64,000 nucleotides of DNA. Source: Minisyncoccia bacterium (GTDB lineage: Bacteria; Patescibacteriota; Minisyncoccia; UBA6257; JAAZHW01). This document shows, in pieces, positions 3,114 to 58,440 of this stretch. Every line of letters starts with the position of its first letter. Position 1 is the first letter of the stretch. A model generated the notes under the pieces. That model was not told where the DNA came from. It searched no databases and was given only the letters and a program-made list of their open reading frames with translations. The stretch spans positions 1,199-65,198 of the forward strand of contig JBFEPE010000003.1 in the NCBI GenBank assembly GCA_041550235.1, in the 5' to 3' direction. Made by a program: the position numbers and the translations under genes.

Positions 3114-5472
3114 TATGATGAGGAGAGATGAGATAAAATCAATAAAAAAATATTTTAGATTGGCGAATTATATTACTGTCGCCCAAATTTACTTACAAAA
3201 TAATTTCTTATTAGAAAAACCACTCTCGCCTGACGACATAAAACCACGATTATTAGGACATTGGGGGACATGCCCGGGCATAAACTTTACTTATGCCCAC
3301 CTAAATTTTTTAATAAAAAAAACAGGAGCAAATATATTATTTATATTAGGACCCGGTCATGGATTCCCCGCCCTTCAAGCAAACCTTTACTTAGAGGGAA
3401 CATTAAGAAAATTTTATCCCCAAGCAAAATTTGATGAGAGCGGACTATCATATATATCAAAAAACTTCAGTTGGCCTTATGGATTCCCAAGCCATACAAA
3501 TCCCGGAACACCCGGCTCAATACTTGAAGGCGGAGAATTAGGATATTCATTATCAACTGCATTCGGAGCAGTATTAGATAATCCAAATTTAATAGCTGCT
3601 TGTTTGATTGGAGATGGAGAGGCCGAAACAGGACCATTGGCAGCAAGTTGGCATTTAAATAAATTCTTAAGCCCATCTATCGATGGAGCAGTTTTGCCAA
3701 TTCTTCATTTGAATGAATATAAAATATCAGGACCAACAATATATGGAAGAATGAGCAGAAGAGAATTAAAAAATTATTTTTGCGGATGTGGGTGGCAACC
3801 AATATTTGTGAAGGGAAATTCATTGTTTGGAGATATAAAAATGAATATTGCTCTACAAAAATGTTATTCAATAATAAGGGATATTCAAGGAGGGAAAGAT
3901 AAAAAATGGCCGATGATTATTTTGGAAACACCTAAGGGATGGACGGGGATAAAGGAATTTAATGGCAAAAAAATTGAAGGAAATTATTTATCTCATCAAG
4001 TGCCTTTAAAAAATGTTAAAGATGATAAAGAAGAAAGAAGGGCATTGGAGGATTGGCTCCTTTCTTATGGAGCAAAATCTCTTTTCTCAAATGATAAGGG
4101 TCCAATAAGAGATGTTTTGTCTATTTTGCCAGAAGAAAATAAAAGAATGGGTAGGAATATCCACACAATGGCTGAAAAAGTTTCAAAAAATTTAGAATTG
4201 CCAGATTGGACTAAGTTCGCAGAGCCACCAAAGAATATGGGAGAAATTGGCTCAAGTAATATGAGAAGAATTGGAGATTATTTAGCAGAGGTTTTCTCAT
4301 TAAATAAGGGGGAAGCAAATTTTCGGCTATTTTCACCAGATGAAACATATTCTAATAAATTAGATGCAGTTTTCAAAAAGACAAAAAGAATATTTTTGTG
4401 GCCATTGAAAAAAACGGATGAAGATTTTTCTTCAAGAAGGGGAGGGGTGATAGAAATACTCAGCGAGCATTCTTTACAGGGAATTTTACAAGGATATGTC
4501 CTCACGGGAAGGCATGGAGTATTTGCTAGTTATGAGGCATTTATTGAAATTGTATCATCAATGGCAGACCAACTTGCTAAATTCTTGAAAGCAAGCAGGG
4601 AATTTCCATGGCGAAAGGGTGTGCCGTCTTTCAATTATATCCTCACATCATCAGGGTGGCGACAAGACCATAATGGATTTTCTCATCAAAACCCAAGCTT
4701 CATTGACGGACTGCTTCAATCAGGAAATGATTTTGTTTCTGCTTATTTTCCTGTTGATGGGACAATGTCGCTGGCAGTGATAGATTATTGTTTAAGAACA
4801 AGGGATAAAATAAATATTATTTCTGCTGGAAAAACATTGGAGCCAAAATGGTTGGGGATAAATCAGGCAAAAGATATGATGGAAAAGGGGATAGATATTT
4901 GGAATGATATAAGCGATAAGAATCCTGATATTGTTTTTGTTGGCATCGGCGATTATATGACGAAAGAATGTATTTATGCGATTGATCTTATCAAAAAAGA
5001 AATTCCAAAAGTTAAGGTGAGGTTTGTAAATATTTTAGAAATAAATTCTTTTGGTTTTGGAAATTATAATTGGAGAAAAAATAATCCTGATAAAGATTTT
5101 AATTTTTATTTTACTTCTAATAAGCCAGTTATATTTAATTTTCATGGATATCCTGAAACAATAAAGGATATATTATTTGATAAATCTAAAAATCCATCAA
5201 GGTTTAAGGTTTTCGGATATATTGAGAATGGCTCCACCACCACTCCTTTTGATATGCAAATAAGGAATAAGACGAGTAGATGGCATTTGCTAATGGAGGC
5301 GGTTTTGTCTCTTGAGGAAAAGAAGAAAATAAGCTCGGCTACTGCCAAAAAAATAATTGATAAGCATAACGAGAAAATATCAAAACATAATTCTTATATT
5401 AAGAAACACGGAGTAGATCTCCCCGAAATTCAGGATTTTGGTAAGAGTGGCATCAGCGAAGAAATATTATAA
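3097..5472 (+). CDS. xfp: Xylulose-5-phosphate/fructose-6-phosphate phosphoketolase
   Basis: 'GHWGTCPGINF', 'ILGPGHG', 'EGGELGYSLSTAFGAVLDNP', 'CLIGDGEAETGPLAASWH' are hallmark phosphoketolase/TPP motifs; the true start may be a few codons downstream (MMRRDE...). Confidence 0.9.
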   Translation: MGYNIYMMRRDEIKSIKKYFRLANYITVAQIYLQNNFLLEKPLSPDDIKPRLLGHWGTCPGINFTYAHLNFLIKKTGANILFILGPGHGFPALQANLYLEGTLRKFYPQAKFDESGLSYISKNFSWPYGFPSHTNPGTPGSILEGGELGYSLSTAFGAVLDNPNLIAACLIGDGEAETGPLAASWHLNKFLSPSIDGAVLPILHLNEYKISGPTIYGRMSRRELKNYFCGCGWQPIFVKGNSLFGDIKMNIALQKCYSIIRDIQGGKDKKWPMIILETPKGWTGIKEFNGKKIEGNYLSHQVPLKNVKDDKEERRALEDWLLSYGAKSLFSNDKGPIRDVLSILPEENKRMGRNIHTMAEKVSKNLELPDWTKFAEPPKNMGEIGSSNMRRIGDYLAEVFSLNKGEANFRLFSPDETYSNKLDAVFKKTKRIFLWPLKKTDEDFSSRRGGVIEILSEHSLQGILQGYVLTGRHGVFASYEAFIEIVSSMADQLAKFLKASREFPWRKGVPSFNYILTSSGWRQDHNGFSHQNPSFIDGLLQSGNDFVSAYFPVDGTMSLAVIDYCLRTRDKINIISAGKTLEPKWLGINQAKDMMEKGIDIWNDISDKNPDIVFVGIGDYMTKECIYAIDLIKKEIPKVKVRFVNILEINSFGFGNYNWRKNNPDKDFNFYFTSNKPVIFNFHGYPETIKDILFDKSKNPSRFKVFGYIENGSTTTPFDMQIRNKTSRWHLLMEAVLSLEEKKKISSATAKKIIDKHNEKISKHNSYIKKHGVDLPEIQDFGKSGISEEIL

Positions 5473-20142: not shown

Positions 20143-20265
20143 ATTCTCTTCTCCCGCCTACGGCGGGAGAAGAGAATGTGTGGTTTTTAAATATAAGTGA
20201 TTATTCTTAATGCCTCCTACCGCCAAAGGTGGCACATCCGCCTATGGCGGAGCGGGGGAGAGGCA
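20143..20265. repeat. Cluster of GC-rich hairpins upstream of rpmF (20143-20177 'attctcttctcccgcctacggcgggagaagagaat'; 20211-20265 nested hairpin)
   Basis: Inverted repeats; the 'ggtggcacatccgcctatggcggag' box recurs at 46870-46896. Confidence 0.75.
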
Positions 20266-27040: not shown

Positions 27041-27067
27041 AAAATATAATATAATTATAATATAAAT

Positions 27068-27487
27068 ATGATTGAATTTTCTAAAGAAAAATTGAATAGT
27101 ATTGCCGAGGAATATCAATTAGCAGATATATACTTTTTTGGTTCTCAAATAACCGGATTAACTCATCCCGAAAGTGATTTTGATGTAGCAGTTCGCTTTA
27201 GAAATGGCTTGCCTGAGAAAGAAAAAAGAGGAAAAATATATGCCAATCTTTTCGCTGATTTAAGCGGCACCTTGAAAATGTCTAATTTGGATTTAGTGTT
27301 CATAGAAGAAGCACCTTTGCATATTCAATTTCAAATTATCAATAAGGGTAAATTAGTTTATTCTCATCACAGAATAAATTCTTGTGATTTTCAAGAAAAA
27401 ATAGTAAATTATTATCGTGATTATAAGTATTTCATTGATGAGTTTTTTAAAGGCGTTTTAGAATCTTCCGTGAAAAATAAGAAATAA
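27068..27487 (+). CDS. Minimal nucleotidyltransferase (MNT-type antitoxin)
   Basis: 'FFGSQITGLTHPESDFDVAV' is the Pol-beta-type NTase motif. Confidence 0.75.
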   Translation: MIEFSKEKLNSIAEEYQLADIYFFGSQITGLTHPESDFDVAVRFRNGLPEKEKRGKIYANLFADLSGTLKMSNLDLVFIEEAPLHIQFQIINKGKLVYSHHRINSCDFQEKIVNYYRDYKYFIDEFFKGVLESSVKNKK

Positions 27488-27505
27488 TAAATAATTTTAT
27501 TTAAT

Positions 27506-27946
27506 ATGTTTAATGATTTTGACAAAGAAAAAATAATAGCAAGAATTGATGATATTAAAAATTCTCATTCAGAACTCAAAAGACTTTCAGGTATTAGCAT
27601 TGATGACTTTAGAAAAAACAAAGAAAATTATCCTTTGGCTATTTATTATTTAAGAATAGCATTAGAATCAGTGCTAACTATTGCCACTCATGTTCTTTCT
27701 CGATTGCCCTCTAATGGGAAAGAAAAAGATTATACTCAATTAATCTTATCATTGGCTGATTATAAGGTTATTCCTTATGAATTTGCTCAAAAAATAAAGG
27801 GGATGGCTGGATATAGAAATAGATTAGTTCATCTCTACTGGAAAATATCGGATGAGGAAGTATTGTCTATTATTAAGGAAAATATAAATGATTTTGAGGA
27901 ATTTATTGAATATGTAAATGAATTTTTAAGAAAGAACAGCAACTAA
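27506..27946 (+). CDS. HEPN-domain protein (HepT/DUF86-type toxin)
   Basis: 'GYRNRLVHLYW' is the Rx4-6H HEPN motif; adjacent to the NTase. Confidence 0.75.
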   Translation: MFNDFDKEKIIARIDDIKNSHSELKRLSGISIDDFRKNKENYPLAIYYLRIALESVLTIATHVLSRLPSNGKEKDYTQLILSLADYKVIPYEFAQKIKGMAGYRNRLVHLYWKISDEEVLSIIKENINDFEEFIEYVNEFLRKNSN

Positions 27947-32905: not shown

Positions 32906-32938
32906 ATCCAATCTCAAAAAGTTAGGATGTTTTTTAAT
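32906..32938. terminator. Bidirectional terminator shared by rpsP (+) and rnpB (-)
   Basis: 'aaaaaacatccaatctcaaaaagttaggatgtttttt': hairpin with an A-run upstream and a T-run downstream. Confidence 0.65.
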
Positions 32939-33372
32939 TCAACAATAATAAGCCGGATTCTGTATCAACAATCATTTATCTATGAATAGTGTCGCCACTA
33001 TTCTATAGCGATCCACCTTTTCGCTTATAAAAAGCGATTTGATCTTGCACCGGATAGGGCTTGCCAGCAATGGCTTATCACTAAGCCCGCATAAGAGTAG
33101 CAATTATGAAAATCACATCTCTTATCTTTTCACCTTTCTCCAGCCCCACTTTTATTTCTAAAAGTGGGGCTGGGTAGTATTGTCTCTGTGGCGCTTTCCC
33201 TATCCAGCACCACTTTTATTTCTAAAAGTGGTGCTGGGCGGTTGGTGTTACCAACTATCCATTTTCCAATATTTATATTTAATAATAAAATAATAAATAT
33301 TTTGGGTGTCCGGACTTTCCTCTTCTTATGTTGCCGAAGCAATATAAGAAGCGATTGCTTTTGCCGAATTGC
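32936..33372 (-). ncRNA. rnpB: RNase P RNA (bacterial type)
   Basis: Minus-strand sense carries the P4 motif 'GAGGAAAGUCCGGACACC' (plus strand 33303-33320), the 3' P4 motif 'ACAGAAUCCGGCUUA' (plus strand 32948-32962), a P3 hairpin, P1/P2 pairing, and two duplicated hairpins with a compensatory C-G to A-U change. Confidence 0.75.
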
Positions 33373-39121: not shown

Positions 39122-40081
39122 TTACTTTTTTTTGAGATCGATCATTCCAGACAAATCAGCAACATATTGAAGTGGGTTTTGTGTAATCAGCGTATTGCCA
39201 TTCTCTGCGAAAGTATTGAGAATTCCTTGATTATCTTGATACCTGACGATTCCAAGGGCTTCTTTAAATGTGATTTTGAACTCTTCCATGAGGGATTTTA
39301 TCGTCTTTTCAACCGCCTTAATTTCTTCCTCTTCTCCTATTCTTTTTGCTTCGGCTTTCTCTTTAGCGACTTCTTTTTCTTTTTTTGCTTTTTCTATAGC
39401 AGTATAAGAAGCAAGAAGTGTTGGGTCTTCTGGTTCAATATTTAGTATTTTACAAACCACATCCTGTCCAAATTTTTCATCAAGGTGATTTTCAATCATC
39501 CTTGATAACTCCATCGTATCTTTAGATTTCAAATTAATCCATGTCCCATTTTCTCTAGCGAGACTTCTTATTCCCCCTTCTATTGTAAATAATAGTGTGG
39601 CATCTGGGTTATCTGTTTTGTAGGTAAAATTTCGCACATTTGATATTAGATTTTCCTTGTTTGTGCCATGAATTTGAGTCTCAATTAGCATATCAAATTT
39701 TAATGGGACATTATCTTCGCAAATTATGTCATTATAGGTCTTTGGAAAAACTTTTTTCATGAGATTGATTTCATATTTACCTAATTTCTTCACTTTTTTC
39801 TCAAGGGGGAACCATATAAAATGGGGTCCTTTTGTCAGAATCCTGGAATCTCTACCTAGAAATTGAGTAGCGACTGCTGTTTTCTCCTCAACTATCAGAA
39901 AGGCTTTTTTCAAGTAGAAGAAGGTGATTATAAGGGTTATAACTATTGAAGCAGGGAGAACAACCGATGGAAGTGGGATGAGGGACATTATCAGAAAAAG
40001 AATCAACCAAAAAACAAAAACTGCCGCAAAACCAATCAATAAATTTTTTGCTTTTCCAAATAAAGCTTTTAGAATATCCAT
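39122..40081 (-). CDS. SPFH/band-7 (stomatin/prohibitin-like) membrane protein
   Basis: N-terminal TMs, 'TKGPHFIWFP', and a C-terminal 'AKEKAEAKRIGEEEE' coiled-coil typical of HflK/C-like proteins. Confidence 0.65.
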   Translation of the reverse strand: MDILKALFGKAKNLLIGFAAVFVFWLILFLIMSLIPLPSVVLPASIVITLIITFFYLKKAFLIVEEKTAVATQFLGRDSRILTKGPHFIWFPLEKKVKKLGKYEINLMKKVFPKTYNDIICEDNVPLKFDMLIETQIHGTNKENLISNVRNFTYKTDNPDATLLFTIEGGIRSLARENGTWINLKSKDTMELSRMIENHLDEKFGQDVVCKILNIEPEDPTLLASYTAIEKAKKEKEVAKEKAEAKRIGEEEEIKAVEKTIKSLMEEFKITFKEALGIVRYQDNQGILNTFAENGNTLITQNPLQYVADLSGMIDLKKK

Positions 40082-40236
40082 TTTAATTTCTCCTTTTTTA
40101 ATCTATATTTATTTTTTAATTCTCACCGTAATTGGCTGGGTGTATTATATCACAAATAAAGAATTTGTCAATATTGATTATATTTTATAAGTTATAATGT
40201 TTGTATTGATATATTTTTCAAGAGTGAGAAGGAGAG

Positions 40237-40267
40237 ACTACCCCGCCCCTTCGGGGCGGGGTAGTCA
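40237..40267. repeat. GC palindrome 'gactaccccgccccttcggggcggggtagtc'
   Basis: Perfect inverted repeat. Confidence 0.8.
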
Positions 40268-40309
40268 AGAATTTTAAATAAAAAATGTGAGGTATAATAT
40301 AATAAATAT

Positions 40310-40579
40310 ATGACTTTATTTCAAAAATACATTCAAGCAGCCCTTCATAAGGCAAAATATAAAATAGATAAAGAAAAAAATGTCTACATTGCCTTTGTTG
40401 AGGAATTGCCAATTTGTTGGGGACAAGGAGCGACTTATGAGGATGCGAGACAAGAATTAGCCAATGTTATTGAAGGTTGGGTTCTTTTGGGTATTCAACA
40501 AGGCGACACTATCCCCCCAATCGGCGGAATTAATTTAGAGAGTATTCTTCATCCCAAGAATCAAGTTCAATATGCCTAA
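40310..40579 (+). CDS. HicB-like antitoxin (second pair)
   Basis: 'VYIAFVEELPICWGQGATYEDARQELANVIEGWV...GDTIPP' matches the HicB fold pattern. Confidence 0.6.
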   Translation: MTLFQKYIQAALHKAKYKIDKEKNVYIAFVEELPICWGQGATYEDARQELANVIEGWVLLGIQQGDTIPPIGGINLESILHPKNQVQYA

Positions 40580-40796
40580 ACTAACCCCTCTATCAAGAAA
40601 GGAATTTATTAAGAAACTTAAGGGCTTTGGGTTGCAAGGTCCTTTTCAAGGGGGAGATCATCAATTTATGTGTAATAAAAATTGTAGAATAAAAGTTCCC
40701 AATTCTCACAGCAAAAAAGATATTCCTATTTTTATTATTCAATTAACTATAAGGCAATTAGGCAAATCAAAAGATGAGTGGATAAATAAAAAATAG
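40572..40796 (+). CDS. HicA-like toxin (second pair)
   Basis: 8-nt overlap with the upstream ORF; 'KLKGFGLQGPFQGGDHQFM...KVPNSHSKKDIP' resembles YcfA/HicA. Confidence 0.55.
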   Translation: MPKLTPLSRKEFIKKLKGFGLQGPFQGGDHQFMCNKNCRIKVPNSHSKKDIPIFIIQLTIRQLGKSKDEWINKK

Positions 40797-40821
40797 GGTA
40801 TAATGTTTATATAGCAAAAAT

Positions 40822-41871
40822 ATGTTGGCAACAATTCCCACAAAAGAAAATATAATAAAAATAATGGAGGGGCTATCTCCTGAATTAAGGCAGACAATAT
40901 CAAGCCGTGAAACAGCTAAGGATATTGAAAATGCCGTCTTAATGCATAAAGTTCCAACAGAAAAAATAAAGGGACTAGTATCATCAGTCGGCTATGTTTT
41001 GCTCGGATTATATAATCACGAAGAATTTACAAAAGATTTATCTAAAGACTTAGGAATAGATCCGCTAATTGCAAGAGATTTAGCAATAGATATTGATAGA
41101 AGCATTTTTTTGCCTATTCGTGATGAAATAAAAAAAGCCCATAAGATTTTCAAAGAAGGCGGAATCAAGAAAGTTGAAAAAGTTGAAGGAATAAAAAAGA
41201 TAGAAGAAATTAAAAAAGAAACAATAATTCCAAAAGAGGAAGAAGAAAAGAAAGAAGAGGAGAAAAAATTTGAAGAAAAGAAATTTGAGAAAAAAATATT
41301 TCCAAAAAGTTTTGCTCCCAAAAAAATTGGCCCAATGGTAGATATAAAGAAGAAGGAAGAAGTCCGAAAAGAATTTAAGCCAATTTCAATTAGAGGAGAA
41401 GAAGCAAAAGTAAAGCCAACACTACAAACAAAATCTCCAATTTCAAGTGTATTTGAGCAAGTAGAAAAAAAGAAAGAAGAAGTAGTTTCAAGATTAGAAA
41501 TAAAGAAGGACGAGCCAACTAAAATAGTTAATTTTACTGCTGATAATTTATCCCCACCTCCACAAATTGAGAAAAAACCGGGGGCAGTAGAAAAAACGAC
41601 TATTCCATCGCCAAAAGAAATGGCAGATGAAGGATTGATGATGGAGAAAAAACTGGAAATGGCAGGAAAAATAATGGAAAAAAAAGTAGGGGGAATAATA
41701 GTGGAGAAAAAAGAAAAAGAAGAAAAAAAGATTGAGACAATGGCAGAAAAAGAAAAAGAAGTAGGGAAAATGGTAATTGAGAAAAAAGAAGAATTAGAGA
41801 CAAAGGCAATAGCAGAAGAAAAAACAAAAGAAAAAGAAAATATAATAAATCTAAAAAAATTAAAGTTTTAA
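40822..41871 (+). CDS. Hypothetical K/E-rich protein (349 aa)
   Basis: Structured N-terminal ~110 aa followed by low-complexity KE repeats. Confidence 0.45.
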   Translation: MLATIPTKENIIKIMEGLSPELRQTISSRETAKDIENAVLMHKVPTEKIKGLVSSVGYVLLGLYNHEEFTKDLSKDLGIDPLIARDLAIDIDRSIFLPIRDEIKKAHKIFKEGGIKKVEKVEGIKKIEEIKKETIIPKEEEEKKEEEKKFEEKKFEKKIFPKSFAPKKIGPMVDIKKKEEVRKEFKPISIRGEEAKVKPTLQTKSPISSVFEQVEKKKEEVVSRLEIKKDEPTKIVNFTADNLSPPPQIEKKPGAVEKTTIPSPKEMADEGLMMEKKLEMAGKIMEKKVGGIIVEKKEKEEKKIETMAEKEKEVGKMVIEKKEELETKAIAEEKTKEKENIINLKKLKF

Positions 41872-41872
41872 T

Positions 41873-42268
41873 ATGCCAACATTCCAAGTGCCACAATTTA
41901 TTGATATAGAGGATAAGATTATCGGGCCTCTCTCATTGAGACAATTTATAATTTTAGCAATAACTGGGGGCTTGCTATTTGCTTTATTTAAAATTTTTCA
42001 ATTTTGGTTGTTCTTTATTTTTGGAGGAATAATTGCGGCATTAGGAATGTCGTTGGCATTTGTGAAGATAAATGGGCAAAGATTTGATAAGGTTGCATTG
42101 AATGCTTTGAGATATTTTATCTCTCCGCGACTCTATGTTTGGAGAAGACCAGAAAAAAGTAAGCAATTATCAGTTGCTCCAAAGATAGAAGTAAAGAAAA
42201 AGGTTGAGGAGCAGAAGAGAATGACTCTTGAGCAATTAGAGGAATTTGCCAAAAAATTGGATAAATAG
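41873..42268 (+). CDS. VirB3/PrgI-like small two-TM protein
   Basis: 'FQVPQFIDIEDKIIGPLSLRQFIILAITGGLLF' resembles the PrgI-family N-terminal motif; lies directly upstream of VirB4-related ORFs. Confidence 0.4.
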   Translation: MPTFQVPQFIDIEDKIIGPLSLRQFIILAITGGLLFALFKIFQFWLFFIFGGIIAALGMSLAFVKINGQRFDKVALNALRYFISPRLYVWRRPEKSKQLSVAPKIEVKKKVEEQKRMTLEQLEEFAKKLDK

Positions 42269-42276
42269 CAACAAAT

Positions 42277-42936
42277 ATGCCAGCAGAAATATCAACAGAA
42301 CAATTTGTAAGTATAGAAACAATAAAGGACGATTCCGTCGTATTAAAGGACGGCTCATTAAGAGCCGTTATAATGGTTTCTGGAATAAATTTTGATTTGA
42401 AATCAGAAGACGAGCAAAATTTAATTATTGGCTCATTTCAAGGTCTTTTAAATAGATTAGATTTTTCAGTTCAATTCATTACTCATTCAAGAAAGCTAAA
42501 TATTGATAGTTATCTAAGAGATATGGGTAAGAGAAGCGAGAAAGAAGAAAATCCATTATTAAAAAATCAAACAACAGAATATATAAGTTTCATAAGCTCG
42601 CTTGTGAATGTTGCCAATGTGATGTCAAAAAGATTTTATGTCGTTGTTCCCTATAGTGTTTTGGCAGTTGAGGCAGAAGAGACAATCTCAAAATTTATTG
42701 GGTTTTTGCCTTTTGGAAAGGGAAAGTCTAACAATGAGGCAAATAAGAAAAAGGAGAATTTTGAGTCACAAAAAATTCAGTTAAAGCATAGGGTAGATTC
42801 TGTAATGGCTGGATTGAGATCAACCGGAGTGAGGAGTATTAGATTGGAGACAGAAGATTTATTGGAGCTTTATTATAATCTTTATAATCCGGAAAAGAAG
42901 GAAAAGAAGATCCCAAAAATATTTGAGGATATTTAA
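42277..42936 (+). CDS. VirB4/TrbE N-terminal-domain-like protein (219 aa), apparently the detached N-domain of the VirB4 ATPase
   Basis: 'SIETIKDDSVVLKDGSLRAVIMVSGINFDLKSEDEQ' resembles the VirB4/TraC N-terminal region; together with the 604-aa ORF it totals 823 aa, the length of a full VirB4. Confidence 0.45.
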   Translation: MPAEISTEQFVSIETIKDDSVVLKDGSLRAVIMVSGINFDLKSEDEQNLIIGSFQGLLNRLDFSVQFITHSRKLNIDSYLRDMGKRSEKEENPLLKNQTTEYISFISSLVNVANVMSKRFYVVVPYSVLAVEAEETISKFIGFLPFGKGKSNNEANKKKENFESQKIQLKHRVDSVMAGLRSTGVRSIRLETEDLLELYYNLYNPEKKEKKIPKIFEDI

Positions 42937-42940
42937 TAAA

Positions 42941-42976
42941 AAGGGGCAGGGTGTTTTTTCACCCGCCCTTTTCGGC
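42941..42976. terminator. Bidirectional terminator (gggcagggtg...cacccgccc flanked by A- and T-runs)
   Basis: 'aaaaggggcagggtgttttttcacccgcccttttcgg'. Confidence 0.6.
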
Positions 42977-42981
42977 AATAA

Positions 42982-43302
42982 CTAAAATTTTACCACGGCC
43001 GCAAGTACTGATTTCCCGTTATTAAAATCTTCGGGAGTTCCCCAATTGAGCCAGTTTCGAAAATTAATTTCTACAAGCCCTTTAGTAGGGGTAGGAATAC
43101 TATAATCCGTTTTTGGTTTGCAATTCAAGGTGCTACCGTTATTACTCTTGAGCAGAATGTTTTTTACAAATATCCCATCTCGGAATGACACTTCTTTAAT
43201 AGTCCAACCAAGATGAATAACCTCGTCTGAGTCCACAAATTCAATAGTCATTTCCTTGTTTATTCTAGCATTTGAATAAAGATCTCTTTTTTTTCTAGTC
43301 AT
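42982..43302 (-). CDS. Hypothetical protein (106 aa) inserted between the two VirB4 parts
   Basis: Strong RBS 'aataggaggaataaata' before the ATG; divergent from the promoter module. Confidence 0.45.
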   Translation of the reverse strand: MTRKKRDLYSNARINKEMTIEFVDSDEVIHLGWTIKEVSFRDGIFVKNILLKSNNGSTLNCKPKTDYSIPTPTKGLVEINFRNWLNWGTPEDFNNGKSVLAAVVKF

Positions 43303-43388
43303 TATTTATTCCTCCTATTTTTTTAATTTTTAACATCTTAACGGAAACTCAACCATCAAATTTCCCGCCAACATTATATCACAAATAA

Positions 43389-43445
43389 ATATATTTGTCA
43401 ATAGTGGGGGTTGGGTTTGACTTATAATAGTATTAATGAACATCC
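43389..43445 (+). promoter_or_regulatory. Conserved promoter-like element, copy 1 ('tgtcaatagtgggggttgggtttgacttataatag')
   Basis: Near-identical to 46727-46793; contains TATAAT at 43423-43428. Confidence 0.55.
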
Positions 43446-43579
43446 TGTCTTCGTCGACCCGCCTTCGCTAAAGCTACGGCAGGGCAGGGGACTTCGGCGG
43501 GCAAAGGAGAAACACCCCGTCCCGCCAAGAGACGAGCCACCCCTCTATAAGAGGGGAATAAGAAATAAGATAAAAAAAT
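43446..43579 (+). promoter_or_regulatory. Structured GC-rich 5' leader of virB4 with the motif 'ggagaaacaccccgtccc-hairpin-ccacccctctataagagggg'
   Basis: The motif recurs at 46826-46880 and 47383-47448. Confidence 0.5.
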
Positions 43580-45394
43580 ATGGCGATAGCAGATTTCTTA
43601 CCATTTTCAAAAAAAGGAGAAGACCAGCCGGTGGCTATTCCCGAAGTATATAAATTTGGACCGCAAACAGCGAGGGATCTTTTGATTCCCCCAGCATTAG
43701 AAGTAGAATCAAATTTTTTAAAAATTGGAAATCTTTTTGTGAAAACATTATTTATCATTGCTTATCCAAGATATCTTTCTACGGGATGGTTTTCGCCGGT
43801 TATAAATATAGACCAAACCGTTGATGTATCAATATTTGTTCATCCAGTTGATACCGGCTCTGCATTGAAAAAATTAAGAAAAAAGACCGCTCAAGTTCAA
43901 GCACAATTAGCAGAAAGACAAGAGAAGGGATTTGTGAGAGACCCCGCATTGGATATGGCATATCAAAACCTGGAAAATCTAAGAGACTCATTGCAACAAG
44001 CAACAGAAAAACTTTTCAATGTCGGTGTATACATTACAATTTATGCTGATACAATGGAAGAATTAAGCGATGTGGAAGGCAAGGTTGTCTCATTTTTGGA
44101 GGGCAGAATGATTTATGCAAAGCCCGCTCTTTTTCAACAAGCACCGGGATTAGAATCAAGTTTTCCATTGGGGTTAGATAGATTGAAAGTTCATAGTGTT
44201 TTAAATTCATCACCATTATCAAGTATGTTTCCGTTTGTTTCCGTTGATTTAACATCAGATTCTGGAATACTTTTTGGGTTAAATAGACATAATAATAGTT
44301 TAATAATTTTTGATAGATTTTCTTTGGAAAATGGAAATATGGTTATATTTGCAAAGTCAGGTAGCGGAAAATCATATTTCACAAAATTAGAAATTTTAAG
44401 GTCATTAATGATAGATACAGATGTTTTGGTTATTGACCCTGAAAATGAATATAGATATCTTTGTGATACCGTTGGCGGTTCATATATTGATATCTCCCTC
44501 ACTTCTCCTCACAATATCAATCCATTTGATTTGCCCCCTCTTATGCCCGACGAAAGTCCAGCCGAAGCATTGAAGTCTAATGTTTTAAACCTCACAAGTT
44601 TGTTGAGAATAATGCTCGGTGATTTATCATCTGAAGAAGCAGGAATATTGGATAGGGCAATCAGCGAAACTTATTCATCAAGAGACATTACCCCTGAAAG
44701 TGATTTTTCTATTATCACTCCGCCCTTAATGGAAGACTTACAAACCGTTTTGGAAAGTATGGAAGGGGGGCTTAATCTTTCTGAGAGATTATATAAATTC
44801 ACAAAAGGAAGTTTTGGTGGATTTATAAATCGCCCTACTAATATTGATATTGTAAATCGATTAGTTGTTTTTGGAATAAGAAACTTAGAAGATGAACTTC
44901 GTCCAATAGCAATGTTTATTATTCTTAATTATATTTGGAACCTTATTCGTTCTAATGTGAAGAAAAGAATATTGATAATTGATGAGGCATGGTGGATGAT
45001 GAAGTTTCCTGCGGGAGCAGATTTCTTATTTGGATTAGTGAAAAGATGCCGTAAATATTTTTTGGGAGTTACTACCATCACTCAAGATGTTGATGATTTT
45101 ATTCGCTCGCCACAAGGAATGCCTATTATCACGAACTCGGCACTTCAAATGTTGATGAAGCAATCTACTGCTTCTATTGATAATGTTGCTGAAACATTCA
45201 GTTTAACTAATTCTGAAAAGCAATTATTGGTTGAGGCGGATATTGGAGAGGGGATATTTTTTGCTGGTCTCAAGCATGCTGCTATTAAGGTCATTGCTTC
45301 TTATGCTGAGGATCAAATAATCACAACAAACCCCGCTCAATTATTAGAGATAGCAGAAGCAAAGAGAGAATTTGGCGAATCCCAAGGATTTTAA
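43580..45394 (+). CDS. virB4: VirB4/TrbE/CagE-family T4SS ATPase (middle and ATPase domains)
   Basis: Walker A 'AKSGSGKSYF', Walker B 'RILIIDEAWWMM', N-terminal 'YPRYLSTGWFSPV' region typical of VirB4. Confidence 0.8.
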   Translation: MAIADFLPFSKKGEDQPVAIPEVYKFGPQTARDLLIPPALEVESNFLKIGNLFVKTLFIIAYPRYLSTGWFSPVINIDQTVDVSIFVHPVDTGSALKKLRKKTAQVQAQLAERQEKGFVRDPALDMAYQNLENLRDSLQQATEKLFNVGVYITIYADTMEELSDVEGKVVSFLEGRMIYAKPALFQQAPGLESSFPLGLDRLKVHSVLNSSPLSSMFPFVSVDLTSDSGILFGLNRHNNSLIIFDRFSLENGNMVIFAKSGSGKSYFTKLEILRSLMIDTDVLVIDPENEYRYLCDTVGGSYIDISLTSPHNINPFDLPPLMPDESPAEALKSNVLNLTSLLRIMLGDLSSEEAGILDRAISETYSSRDITPESDFSIITPPLMEDLQTVLESMEGGLNLSERLYKFTKGSFGGFINRPTNIDIVNRLVVFGIRNLEDELRPIAMFIILNYIWNLIRSNVKKRILIIDEAWWMMKFPAGADFLFGLVKRCRKYFLGVTTITQDVDDFIRSPQGMPIITNSALQMLMKQSTASIDNVAETFSLTNSEKQLLVEADIGEGIFFAGLKHAAIKVIASYAEDQIITTNPAQLLEIAEAKREFGESQGF

Positions 45395-45474
45395 ATTTTT
45401 TGTTTTTGATTTTTTTTGAAATAAAAAAACAGCATTTGAGGATTTCTCCCCAAATGCTTTCTAATTTTTATACT

Positions 45475-46647
45475 TCATCCCATTCTGTTTTCTTCAATAA
45501 ACTGCTTTATTTTTTCGGAATGCGAGCATCTTAAATAATGTCTTATTCTTCTTGCGATTCTAGTTATTCCAATATCCTTATCTTCATCCTCATCTCCCCC
45601 TCCAGTCATCTCTTTTCCTTTCACTTCTCTTATCATTCCATCAAGATAAGAATTAGATGCCTCTTTTGATTGAATTTGCTCAAGTCGTTCAATCGTGATT
45701 TCATTTTCATCTATAAATCTTTCCATCAAATCTCGGAATGCCCACTGCTCTTTCAAGTCATTACTTGGCTCAAAGCCAAACCAAGAAATAAGATTTTCTT
45801 CCTCTGTAGAAACTCGTCCTTGATTGATCAATCCCTGCAGGTTTTCTCTTGTGAAGCCAAATTCCCCAACTTTTAACAAAAATTCAGGCGAATTTTCAAA
45901 AGGGAAGACCTTTAAAATGCTATCCCAAAATCTGTCTAGGTAGCAATCGCTAAAAGAATTTTCCCCAACAAGATATTTAAGGTTTTTTTCAAGCACTTCT
46001 GCCATTTCAAATAGAGAAAGATAAATTTTCTTTATTCCCTCAAAAATTGTTTGGCTATTTGATTTTTTCCATAATTTCCACAAGCCATCAATATAATGAC
46101 TCATTGAATGTGCCCAGTAAAAATATCTTTTTTCTTCCAATGCAAAAGCACTTAAAGCTATTTCTATTCCGCGAGAAACACATTCAACATCACCGTTTTT
46201 AAGGGCTGCCTCTAGTGAATTCATTTGCAAATAATTTTTTTTCGATGCCTCCTTCGCCCCATAGATATACCCACCAAGTTTTGCAAATCCTTTTCTTAGA
46301 TTTTGTTCTTTAAGAATAGTCAAAAACTTTTCAATATCTTTACTCGCCTGATAGTGAAAGCGGACTCTTGTTTCGGGAAAAAGATTGGGATCGCCAGAGT
46401 TATCAATCCAAACATAGTCATCAAAATTAAATCCTTTTTTTCTAAGACTCGCAATGACTTCGCTTCCGCAGACCATCCCCAAAAAAAATCCAATCAGAAT
46501 AATCTCAATGTTGTTTTCTTTTAAGAAATCAACAACCTCATCATCTGTCTTCGGGGTTAATGCAAATGTTTGGTGTCCAAGATTTTTGGCAACCTCTCTT
46601 TGTTTTTCGGTTTCATTCAGAAACCAATCAATCCATACGATATTCAT
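45475..46647 (-). CDS. Hypothetical protein (390 aa)
   Basis: RBS 'aataggaggaataaa' before the ATG; divergent from promoter module copy 2. Confidence 0.5.
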   Translation of the reverse strand: MNIVWIDWFLNETEKQREVAKNLGHQTFALTPKTDDEVVDFLKENNIEIILIGFFLGMVCGSEVIASLRKKGFNFDDYVWIDNSGDPNLFPETRVRFHYQASKDIEKFLTILKEQNLRKGFAKLGGYIYGAKEASKKNYLQMNSLEAALKNGDVECVSRGIEIALSAFALEEKRYFYWAHSMSHYIDGLWKLWKKSNSQTIFEGIKKIYLSLFEMAEVLEKNLKYLVGENSFSDCYLDRFWDSILKVFPFENSPEFLLKVGEFGFTRENLQGLINQGRVSTEEENLISWFGFEPSNDLKEQWAFRDLMERFIDENEITIERLEQIQSKEASNSYLDGMIREVKGKEMTGGGDEDEDKDIGITRIARRIRHYLRCSHSEKIKQFIEENRMG

Positions 46648-46726
46648 TTTATTCCTCCTATTCGTTTTATTTTATTATTTTATTTTTAAACATCAGGAAA
46701 TCTGACTTTCCTGATAGTATGATGTA

Positions 46727-46793
46727 ATATATTTATAAAAATGTCAATAGTAGGGGTTGGGTTTGATTTATAATGGTAAGGATGAACACCCCG
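46727..46793 (+). promoter_or_regulatory. Conserved promoter-like element, copy 2 ('tgtcaatagtaggggttgggtttgatttataatgg')
   Basis: TATAAT at 46769-46774. Confidence 0.55.
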
Positions 46794-47490
46794 CCTTCGT
46801 CGAGACTTCGGCGGGCGAAGGAGAAAACACCCCGTCCCGCCTGAGGCGGACCACCCTTCTATTAGAGGGTGGCACATCCGCCTTTGGCGGAGAATTATAA
46901 GACAAGATTAACAACTCCCAAAGAAAATCAAAATTTCGAATATATAGAGAGTAAATAGAAACAAATTAAGGAATGGGGAGCGATGATCTATATATTCAAA
47001 TGTTTGAGTTTTGCCGATTTTCAAATAGAGGCAAAACGAGTTCTTTCCAGCCAGAGGCGGATCCGCCTATGGCGGAGAATTGATCATCGCGGAGACAAGA
47101 AATAAATTGCAAAGCAATTTCTTTCTTGGCGGGAATGGATATAATTTGTCTATTTACGAACGAAATAGAGAAATTTTAGATTTTTTGGGGAGATAGAGAT
47201 TCCCCGCCGAAGGCGGGCAGGCCGCCGGAGTATTATCCGCCTCTGGCGGACGGGAATGAAAAGAAAGGACGGGCATGACAAGAAAAAAGTGGGGATAATC
47301 TAAATTGTAGCAATAATATAATGGTGGTATAATATAATCAAAGAAAATATCTCCCCGCTTTCGCGGGGATGACGACAAAGAAGGGGAGAAACACCCCGTC
47401 CCAGCCCCTGCGGACAGGGGCTGGACCACCCCTCTATAAGAGGGGAATTATACTCGCCTTCGTTGAAACTTCGGCGAGGCGAAGAAAAAT
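46794..47490 (+). other. ~700-nt non-coding GC-hairpin-dense region; candidate long structured leader or ncRNA
   Basis: No credible ORF; ORF-track hits here are Pro/Arg-rich translations of hairpins; contains the leader motif twice, the 61-bp repeat and the 'aaaatcaaaatttcgaatat' box. Confidence 0.45.
47198..47258 (+). repeat. ~61-bp composite two-hairpin repeat, direct copy
   Basis: 'gattccccgccgaaggcgggcaggccgccggagtattatccgcctctggcggacgggaatga'. Confidence 0.8.
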
Positions 47491-47952
47491 ATGGCGGAGG
47501 AGACAAAAACAAAAATTGAAAAACCATTACAAGTTCCACAGAGAAAACCTCAAATACCAACAGGCGGAGCGAGAACCATTAGACCAAAACTATCAAGATT
47601 CTTGCCGGTTGGAAGAAAAAGAGAGGGAGCATCTCAAAAAGAATCAGGAACAATAGGGAAAATAACAAAAAAGGGGACATTAATAATGGGAACTTTGATT
47701 TTTTTGCCAATTATTCTTTTGGCTGATGTAGTTGATATCTTTACATTAGCAGGTCCAGTATTAATAGTTTCATGGATATTAGATATATTATCCTTTGTTT
47801 TCCCAGCCGTATTTCTTTTGATTGCCAACAAAGGACAGGGGATTATGAGATACGGGATGGCATGCTTTGCCGAAGGAATACCAGTCGTAGAATGGGGGAC
47901 ATGGAGAATAATAGTTCTATTGATGATAATTTTTAGCTCAAAAAGCACCTAA
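47491..47952 (+). CDS. Hypothetical small membrane protein (2-3 TM helices)
   Basis: Hydrophobic C-terminal half; preceded by the leader box 'ctcgccttcgttgaaacttcggcgaggcgaag'; start uncertain. Confidence 0.4.
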   Translation: MAEETKTKIEKPLQVPQRKPQIPTGGARTIRPKLSRFLPVGRKREGASQKESGTIGKITKKGTLIMGTLIFLPIILLADVVDIFTLAGPVLIVSWILDILSFVFPAVFLLIANKGQGIMRYGMACFAEGIPVVEWGTWRIIVLLMIIFSSKST

Positions 47953-54685: not shown

Positions 54686-54869
54686 AAAATCAAAATTTCG
54701 AATATCTAGAGAGTAAATAGAAACAGAGATATAATAATATCCCTCCCCCGCCTACGGCGGGGGAGGGATTATCCCGGCTTATAAACAAAGTAAAGAAATT
54801 TTAGATTTTTTTTGAAGCCATGTTATAAAAAGACATAAATTAGCCTCCCCCCGCCTACGGCGGGGGGAG
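54686..54869. repeat. Mosaic repeat region: 'aaaatcaaaatttcgaatatctagagagtaaatagaaaca' box (also at 46921-46962; partial at 2509-2535) plus two GC hairpins (54739-54769, 54845-54869)
   Basis: Shared ~40-nt box, and the 'ataataatatccc+hairpin' junction is shared with 2530-2570. Confidence 0.7.
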
Positions 54870-58149: not shown

Positions 58150-58440
58150 GCGGGGAAGAGATGATTTCCGCTATATATTAAATAAAAAAGCATGCCTGTC
58201 GCAAAACATACATTGTGCGACAGATACAATGCCATTCCCCCTATATTAGATTATCCACATTGACAATGGATTTGTTGTGAGTATAATAAAGACATCCTTA
58301 GAAAAGATCGCGCTTCGCGGTCTTTTCCTTTTTTTCAAATCTATTATTTCTGAATTTTAAGACGGATATTCTATCTTGACGAGGGTGGATTTCGCCTCTT
58401 TGAATAATAATTCATTTATATTATTTCAATAATCAGATAA

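Follow-up and report, generated by a model that had tools for sequence, protein, structure and literature searches.

The window analysed here, a 64,000-nt stretch of contig JBFEPE010000003.1 from a Minisyncoccia bacterium, raises the question of whether VirB4, the motor ATPase of the type IV secretion system (T4SS), has been broken in two by an insertion or is naturally made as two proteins. A gene of 219 aa (42277-42936, + strand) encodes a TrsD/TraC-like VirB4 N-terminal domain, a gene of 604 aa (43580-45394, +) encodes a VirB4 ATPase of the CD1110 family without that domain, and the two are 643 bp apart, with a hairpin, a gene on the opposite strand and a promoter module between them. The original prediction, made from the letters alone, had offered both answers; the open reading frames (ORFs), the hairpin, the antisense gene and the repeated module that it described are all present. 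Our best explanation, to which we give a probability of about 0.8 as a whole, is that this is a chromosomal T4SS locus of a Paceibacteria-type Patescibacterium with the two-gene VirB4 that is normal in its lineage, in which the junction between the genes has turned into a site for strain-variable accessory cargo and the leader of the ATPase gene consists of elements resembling repetitive extragenic palindromes (REPs). The split itself is ordinary. What is unusual is that a swappable accessory gene with its own promoter lies between the halves, together with mobile hairpin repeats.

Two genes for one VirB4

The 219-aa protein resembles the N-terminal domain of VirB4, as had been proposed. Among the NCBIfam models it matched positions 103-235 of 894 in VirB4_plasma (2e-13), positions 5-176 of 792 in TIGR00929 (1e-6) and the TrsD model NF041427 (E 1.2e-9), the last with 38 bits against a family cut-off of 200. 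Its sole match in local Pfam, PF11130, was below threshold (E 0.004), and PF26593, 'TraC-like', is precomputed for close homologues of the protein, including the 97% identical P0001. We found 2242 homologues, and the best 120 of these 2242 are all stand-alone proteins of 207-235 aa. A direct search of PDB sequences with the N-domain ORF returned chance matches only, while an AlphaFold2 (AF2) model built on 37 homologues reached a pLDDT of 71.

The 604-aa ORF is the rest of the same protein, again in agreement with the original prediction. It scored 355.8 bits against the NCBIfam model conju_CD1110 (NF045971), above the cut-off of 325, over positions 185-728 of 752; the first 184 positions of the model are not covered, and the N-domain is a separate ORF. 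The same complementarity is seen with TIGR00929, of which the 604-aa ORF covers positions 239-725 and the 219-aa ORF positions 5-176, so that the short ORF does have N-domain similarity and the long one does not make up a complete VirB4 by itself. Further matches were obtained with PF19044 (8e-32), with the solved VirB4 C-terminal domain 4ag5 (2e-38) and with residues 397-736 of TrwK, and the ORF is colinear from its start with TrsE of pSK41 (3e-35). The Walker A motif (GSGKS, residues 261-265) and the Walker B acidic pair (DE, 468-469, within IIDEAW, 466-471) are both present and invariant in the alignment of homologues (A2).

Colinearity was assessed by joining the N and C proteins end to end and using the result as a query, with which fused relatives are expected to outrank the separate parts at equal divergence. 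Fused Patescibacteria homologues of 780-809 aa covered 98-99% of this joined query at 53-58% identity, and the 219-aa ORF aligned with residues 1-~228 of the fused forms. In the alignment (A1), the end of the N ORF and the start of the C core (GPQTARDLL) flank a short variable linker and nothing conserved is missing, which answers the question of whether both ORFs are contiguous in full-length VirB4 without loss. At the level of sequence, this full-length colinearity with fused homologues is direct evidence that TrsD-like proteins are the detached VirB4 N-domain. The one segment that the fused forms lack is the first ~26 residues of the C ORF (MAIADFLPFSKK...PEVYKF, encoded by 43580-43657), which are conserved among split forms with the consensus M..DFLPFSKK....P.V..F and have no counterpart in the fused ones. 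This extra peptide may serve as a docking peptide for the detached N-domain.

The separation of the two parts is the rule among relatives. A scan of one genome per species gave 80 loci, of which 74 had both parts on the contig; N and C are separate ORFs in 72 of these 74 and fused in the other two, proportions that are biased towards split forms because the loci were picked by split-form query patterns. The distance from the N stop codon to the C start is 1-2 bp in L005 and L006, whose ATPase proteins are 83% and 81% identical to that of the window, and 31 bp in L003. Between the N stop codon and the conserved C core, the median distance is 84 nt, which corresponds to the 26-codon extension plus a few bases, and 54 of the 72 split loci have at most 120 nt here. 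The two largest values seen are those of the window (721 nt) and of its sister strain L001 (1143 nt). Since the two genes usually abut or overlap in relatives, they are probably translationally coupled there. Of the two answers offered originally, the naturally two-part VirB4 is therefore the one that stands: the two-gene arrangement is the normal state in Patescibacteria and has been published as TrsD plus VirB4.

In the parts of Quinonero-Coronel et al. (2025; PMC12102498) that deal with TrsD, this protein is described as a remote homologue of the VirB4 N-terminus and as the T4SS component found most often in Patescibacteria, with 2,272 homologues, of which 1,664 adjoin VirB4. The same parts list TrsD as essential in a cultivated Patescibacteria species, where T4SS genes are reported to be essential, and they describe a gene set like that of the window: a PrgI/VirB3-like protein, a TrsD homologue, VirB4 and a VirB2-like pilin. 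The passages of that paper that answer to keywords make no mention of a TrsD-VirB4 pair interrupted by accessory genes, nor of hairpin repeats. An identical layout is found in the staphylococcal conjugative plasmids pSK41/pGO1 (MPF_FATA subclass), in which TrsD (227 aa) is followed after a 14-bp gap by TrsE (672 aa), that is, a remote homologue of the VirB4 N-terminus of ~220 aa lies directly 5′ of an ATPase without that domain. The differences are that identity is only 20-22%, that the locus described here is chromosomal rather than on a conjugative plasmid, and that its two genes are 643 bp apart. The single-chain VirB4 proteins (TrwK of R388, the CD1110 family and the fused Patescibacteria forms) have the same domains, but here these are carried by two polypeptides.

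Both halves are under strong purifying selection and are functional. Relative to strain L102, pN/pS was 0.009 for the ATPase gene and 0.03 for the gene that follows it, and dN/dS of the N gene was 0.04-0.06 relative to sister strains; all T4SS ORFs of the window are intact and full length. The 219-aa protein and the 604-aa ATPase, with its middle and P-loop domains, presumably assemble non-covalently; as in solved VirB4 complexes, the ATPase ring would then be built from the C-terminal part, with the N-domain in contact with VirB3 and VirB8 at the membrane. Directly 5′ of the N-domain gene is a gene for a PrgI/VirB3-like small membrane protein (41873-42268, +; PF12666 PrgI, 3.4e-10), a position that is kept in the syntenic loci of L003, L006 and L001. 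Around the starts of the T4SS genes (42270-42279, 43572-43582 and 47483-47493) the context is A-rich (AAAUAUGSC), with no Shine-Dalgarno sequence, unlike that of the inserted antisense genes, which carry strong AGGAGG sites. The window also contains a bacterial class A RNase P RNA (32932-33370, -; 143.9 bits, E 3e-44) and is therefore chromosomal.

The insert and its strain-variable cargo

Between the convergent N-domain and antisense genes, a hairpin at 42940-42972 gives a stable predicted fold on either strand (+, -20.4 kcal/mol, z -3.9; -, -17.8 kcal/mol, z -2.7). An A-run precedes the hairpin and a T-run follows, so that termination is possible in both directions, in keeping with the bidirectional terminator predicted there. 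The antisense gene (42982-43302, -) encodes 106 aa and, as had been noted, has a strong ribosome-binding site (AGGAGG at 43311-43316 in + strand coordinates), 8 nt 5′ of its ATG. We found no relatives of this protein: a word-indexed search of 5.8 billion clustered proteins returned only the ORF itself, an exhaustive HMMER scan of 1.84 billion representatives gave no credible homologue, and there was no match in Pfam, NCBIfam, PADLOC or PHROG. Three giant repeat proteins were rejected as homologues when BLASTP showed 18-aa matches repeated 8 times, their scores being inflated by the repeats. The single-sequence AF2 model of the 106-aa protein, with a pLDDT of 50, is unusable. PADLOC likewise gave nothing for a 319-aa protein and for the 85-aa protein of L001 described below, and PHROGs gave nothing for either of these or for the 390-aa product of a second antisense gene.

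Beyond the antisense gene lies a module with promoter-like sequences back to back. On the - strand, a consensus sigma-70 promoter (43401->43373; TTGACA-17-TATAAT with TG, 12/12 matches) faces the antisense ORFan and lies in the part of the module that is common to L001, L102 and the second copy in the window. On the + strand, a G-rich block with a -10-like TATAAT (43423-43428) forms a probable promoter at 43402-43435, with a predicted transcription start near 43435; within this block, GGGGTTGGGTTTGAYTTATAAT is conserved in all copies of the module. A candidate + strand -35 box, TTGTCAATA, was rejected, since read on the other strand it is the TTGACA -35 of the minus-strand promoter. What makes the + strand -10 box credible is mainly strain L102, in which the same TATAAT box lies 7 nt before the ATG of an NTP_transf_2 nucleotidyltransferase gene, which is hence leaderless. 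The original prediction that transcription restarts here into the ATPase part, with a start near 43436, is a reasonable hypothesis that the -10 box and this parallel support in part; the consensus promoter of the module faces the opposite way. We consider it most likely that transcription restarts at the -10 box and reaches the ATPase gene by way of a 145-nt leader. This GC-rich leader (43436-43579, +) is predicted to fold into hairpins (-48.8 kcal/mol, z -2.35).

What occupies the junction differs between strains. At the DNA level, the window and three other contigs share 94-97% identity over the N gene and the beginning of the ATPase gene. The samples or assemblies of L001, L102 and L103 are SRR29257342, GCA_041559835.1 and GCA_041548905.1, respectively. 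In L001, however, the junction contains an 85-aa antisense ORFan and ~600 bp of AT-rich DNA, and in L103 it contains a sense-oriented GIY-YIG nuclease gene, the contig ending within the insert. When the window is compared with L001, the variable segment extends from the N stop codon almost to the -10 of the minus-strand promoter, and both have the promoter module. The terminator and the opposite-strand ORFan would have been placed between two existing halves, and this junction would have become an accessory-cargo site in the species.

A second interruption, 3.3 kb downstream, follows the same plan. There an antisense gene of 390 aa (45475-46647, -) has no credible match in Pfam, NCBIfam, PADLOC or PHROGs; PADLOC PDC-M42A (E 0.0095) was non-significant, with no stretch passing alone. 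Strain L102 has a 142-aa antisense gene in its place. The module beyond it (46648-46870) is 75-88% identical to 43303-43555, as the original prediction had seen when it reported that the module recurs, and carries a minus-strand promoter at 46747->46719; for 43361-43555 against 46707-46869, identity is 75-76%. A 37-nt consensus of the module occurs at these two sites only in the window, with a chance expectation of 0. A third interruption, on the upstream side, holds an antisense SPFH/Band 7 gene (39122-40081, -; Pfam Band_7) with its own consensus promoter (40171->40144, -; 12/12), followed by a HicB-HicA toxin-antitoxin pair (40310-40796, +; UPF0150/HicB and HicA). The syntenic operons of L006 and L003 lack the segment 39122-40796 and have none of the three insertions. 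In strain L103, the region matching this segment holds a PemK toxin gene. In total, the T4SS operon is broken at three places, and at each of them a promoter-like module is directed towards the T4SS genes that follow.

Taken together, the insert at the VirB4 junction is a secondary, strain-level accessory cassette with a back-to-back promoter module and REP-like repeats. Its ORFan would be driven by the consensus promoter while the opposing -10 box would serve the ATPase gene; the same module and hairpin elements accompany the second antisense insertion, and strains differ in their cargo but retain the promoter module. Separately, an NTP_transf_2 gene at 27055-27506 of the window is 92% identical to the one at 2530-2980 of L102, where it lies within the T4SS operon directly after the shared promoter block; the different sites of this gene in the two strains suggest cassette-like relocation.

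Small genes also occupy T4SS operon junctions in other species. The N-C junction contains a small sense-oriented gene in 4 of the 72 split species, three of them for 23S rRNA intervening sequence (IVS) proteins and one for a PDDEXK_3/GxxExxY protein. Of these four loci (L014, L037, L070 and L072), L014 and L072 were checked for inverted repeats around the junction gene, and both show them; five more junctions of 81-115 bp have no ORF, and of these five, L051, L058 and L063 show inverted repeats. Across 875 kb of these loci there are 18 IVS-protein/PDDEXK_3 genes, and 16 of them belong to the T4SS operon core, all in sense orientation: 4 occupy the N-C junction and 12 adjoin PrgI on its 5′ side. 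The 13 species listed with such a gene on the 5′ side of PrgI, at ~4200-5200 in each, are L010, L018, L036, L037, L039, L040, L043, L048, L063, L067, L068, L080 and L083. With 16 of 18 inside the operon, its junctions attract small selfish genes more widely. The IVS-protein, GxxExxY (PDDEXK_3) and GIY-YIG genes share the junction with the cargo of the window but are in sense orientation and belong to known families, whereas the window cargo is an antisense ORFan with its own promoter.

The hairpin element of the ATPase leader

The leader of the ATPase gene contains a repeated element (43512-43559, +; 63.4 bits with a covariance model). According to the alignment of copies, the element consists of ACACCCCGTC, a hairpin of variable sequence, and then (C)CACCCCTCTATAAGAGGGGAAT, which forms a 7-bp hairpin; in short form it is ACACCCCGTC-hairpin-CCACCCCTCTATAAGAGGGGAAT. 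The covariance model found three copies in the 64-kb window, all in the T4SS locus. One of the other two is degenerate (46827-46872, model span 46817-46883; 51.2 bits), and the remaining one (47391-47448, +; 64.1 bits) lies in a 146-nt hairpin block (47343-47488) directly before the T4SS gene with its ATG at 47491. L001 carries two copies, one 5′ of the ATPase gene and the other in the PrgI-N spacer. Of the five copies in these T4SS loci, four are in sense orientation, 19-42 nt before a start codon, and the fifth, the degenerate copy, is inside an inverted doublet. This doublet (46831-47254, with arms at 46831-46988 and 47082-47254) is a large, imperfect, ORF-less inverted repeat resembling a REPIN or a miniature inverted-repeat transposable element in head-to-head form, and the region 46776-47496 folds at -272.8 kcal/mol compared with -194.6 for shuffled sequences (z -12.7).

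The first hairpin shows strong covariation. In its P1 stem, 93.6% of cells are paired, versus 80% in shuffles and ~50% when the pairing is slid, and 39 cells show double changes; at three of the pairs, three or four different standard pairs are seen, and the flanking boxes hardly vary. Across 25 copies (alignment A6), the CGTC tag shows little or no variation at its G, T and last C; after the tag come the hairpin and then (C)CA. None of the 4227 Rfam covariance models matched the window at the gathering threshold besides RNase P, and at E<=1 the region 39900-47600 gave chance-level matches only. Identity as attC, dif or a ribozyme was considered and dropped, no core motif being present; the formal comparison was that with Rfam.

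The element also occurs in organisms that are not relatives of the window organism. An exact 23-mer scan of metagenome contigs found it in 14 contigs (L088-L101), one of which encodes a Por_Secre_tail protein typical of Bacteroidota, and a relaxed pattern, applied to these 14 contigs together with the window and L001, detected 31 instances, which lie on both strands and number up to five in 2.3 kb. A scan of viral contigs for the element had no matches. In L095 (2779-5760, the same DNA as in L099), five copies are in frame inside one 993-aa restriction-modification methylase ORF, and an inserted DUF559 nuclease domain is flanked by a pair of inverted copies (3862-3905 and 4272-4312). Apart from L102, of the same species, and one weak match, the covariance model found no element in the T4SS loci of 83 other species (926 kb). 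That match (23 bits; L052, 5191-5254) lies ~38 nt 5′ of an N-domain gene in a Taylorbacteria metagenome-assembled genome and could represent a diverged form of the element in a different lineage. Copies in L089 are located in an Eco57I/MmeI-like ORF, which holds an IS200-like Y1 transposase domain as well.

Presence and absence at the same site also differ between strains. The 146-nt block before the gene at 47491 is present in the window and absent in L102, with AAAATAT on both sides, and a 160-nt hairpin block between PrgI and the N gene is present in L001 and absent in the window and in L104. GC-rich hairpin segments of the L103 PrgI-N spacer and upstream region match the window elsewhere (20226-20256, 54770-54813 and 58360-58398; 84-97% identity), which indicates that there are further hairpin repeat families in the genome.

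In CGTC-tagged REPs, a short palindrome is by definition bordered by a CGTC tetranucleotide on one side and by an unpaired, CCA-like tail on the other. They form a superfamily for which no transposase is known and to which Rickettsia RPE-4/6 and Neisseria dRS3 belong (Di Nocera et al., 2013; PMC3733652). The element shares with them the tag 5′ of the palindrome, the CCA tail, head-to-head dimers, in-frame intragenic copies and strain variation. It differs from families CGTC-1 to -4, which have stems of 8-9 bp and loops of 4-5 nt, in that its stems are mostly 4-6 bp (up to 10) and its loops 3-4 nt, and from described CGTC REPs in its invariant second hairpin (CCCCTCT-ATA-AGAGGGG) and its 5′ ACACC extension. 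Patescibacteria are not among the phyla listed for CGTC REPs in that paper (PMC3733652). Given the tag, palindrome, tail, dimers and intragenic copies, we read the leader as selfish hairpin repeats that form a 5′ untranslated region. The 'GC-rich leader' of the original prediction would accordingly be made of mobile REP-like elements rather than being a dedicated leader, and it is conceivable that the element also stabilises or modulates mRNA.

Alternative explanations and significance

The module lies exactly between the two halves and fused homologues exist in Patescibacteria, as would be expected if its insertion into a once-continuous virB4 had created the split. Such a break would be a rare case of a mobile module rewiring an essential motor gene, but this is not the case here. 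In relatives that have no insert, the two parts are already separate genes, divided at the same linker by gaps of 1-31 bp, and the content of the insert varies between strains whose flanking genes are nearly identical; the insert is therefore not the cause of the split. Where an unsplit virB4 might have been sought, in the relatives with ATPases 81-83% identical, the genes are separate with gaps of 1-2 bp. As 72 of 74 species loci are split and the conserved ~26-aa extension of split-form C parts is also present here, we consider an insertion-caused split to be next to impossible. A much stronger contender, to which we give slightly less than an even chance, is that the two genes were never 'split' at all, the TrsD-like protein and VirB4-C being ancestral and the 780-809-aa proteins being derived fusions. 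A neighbour-joining tree of the C parts, with pSK41 TrsE as its root, places 67 fused forms in a single region, nested in paraphyletic split forms, and the TrsD/TrsE outgroup is itself two-gene. The tree is crude, however, being distance-based, without support values and with a single distant outgroup, and four split forms lie within its fused clade; moreover, most VirB4 families elsewhere are single-chain (TIGR00929, TrwK structures). The C-part sequences thus give a hint that fusion, not fission, may be the derived state.

With regard to the leader, it is unlikely, in our view, that it is a dedicated cis-regulatory RNA for T4SS genes, of the riboswitch or attenuator kind, rather than selfish DNA. 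The sense orientation of four of the five T4SS copies close to start codons, the covariation of P1 and the near-invariant boxes would fit such an RNA, but there is no match in Rfam, the element is absent from the 926 kb of T4SS loci of other species, its presence at a given site differs between strains, it occurs on both strands and in frame in a methylase gene of unrelated contigs, and it fits the definition of CGTC REPs. Still less probable is a decaying operon, in which polar insertions would leave the ATPase and downstream genes no longer properly expressed. Three antisense genes do interrupt the operon, two with terminator-like hairpins after them, and the ATPase gene has lost its coupling and has no Shine-Dalgarno sequence; yet every T4SS ORF is intact, pN/pS is low between strains that both carry insertions, a promoter-like module follows each interruption, and T4SS genes are reported as essential in a cultivated Patescibacterium in the pertinent parts of PMC12102498.

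Some observations weigh against the explanation that we favour, that of a lineage-normal two-gene VirB4 with cargo at its junction. The ATPase gene lacks a Shine-Dalgarno sequence, and the coupling present in relatives is lost here. The strongest promoter of the module drives the antisense gene rather than the ATPase gene; a promoter scan found no canonical -35 for the + strand TATAAT at 43423-43428, and the support for the + strand promoter consists of its -10 box and the leaderless gene of L102. The nine best PDB matches of the N-domain model in Foldseek are TrwK/VirB4 chains, but weak ones (E 0.02-0.17, TM 0.36-0.46, TMq 0.30-0.46), and comparison of the N family with pSK41 TrsD by hhalign gave only 49% probability (E 1.8e-4). 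Finally, the query patterns used for the species loci favoured split forms, and fused forms are common in another clade.

An operon that is reported to be essential in a cultivated relative thus tolerates strain-variable antisense cargo at three junctions, and a structured, covarying and apparently mobile element of the CGTC-REP type is found in a phylum where such repeats had not been listed. We tentatively suggest, as a proposal that is more doubtful than probable, that the T4SS operon junctions of this species are exchange sites, at which strains would replace ORFan or accessory cargo downstream of a back-to-back promoter module that is itself retained. Such exchange would go together with a two-hairpin subfamily of CGTC REPs not described before (ACACCCCGTC-hairpin-CCACCCCTCTATAAGAGGGGAAT), which is apparently mobile and shares exact 23-mers with unrelated genomes. 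If this is true, the CGTC REPs, which have no known transposase, would gain a tractable new family, and the junctions would represent a cassette-like route of gene gain in the reduced genomes of Patescibacteria.

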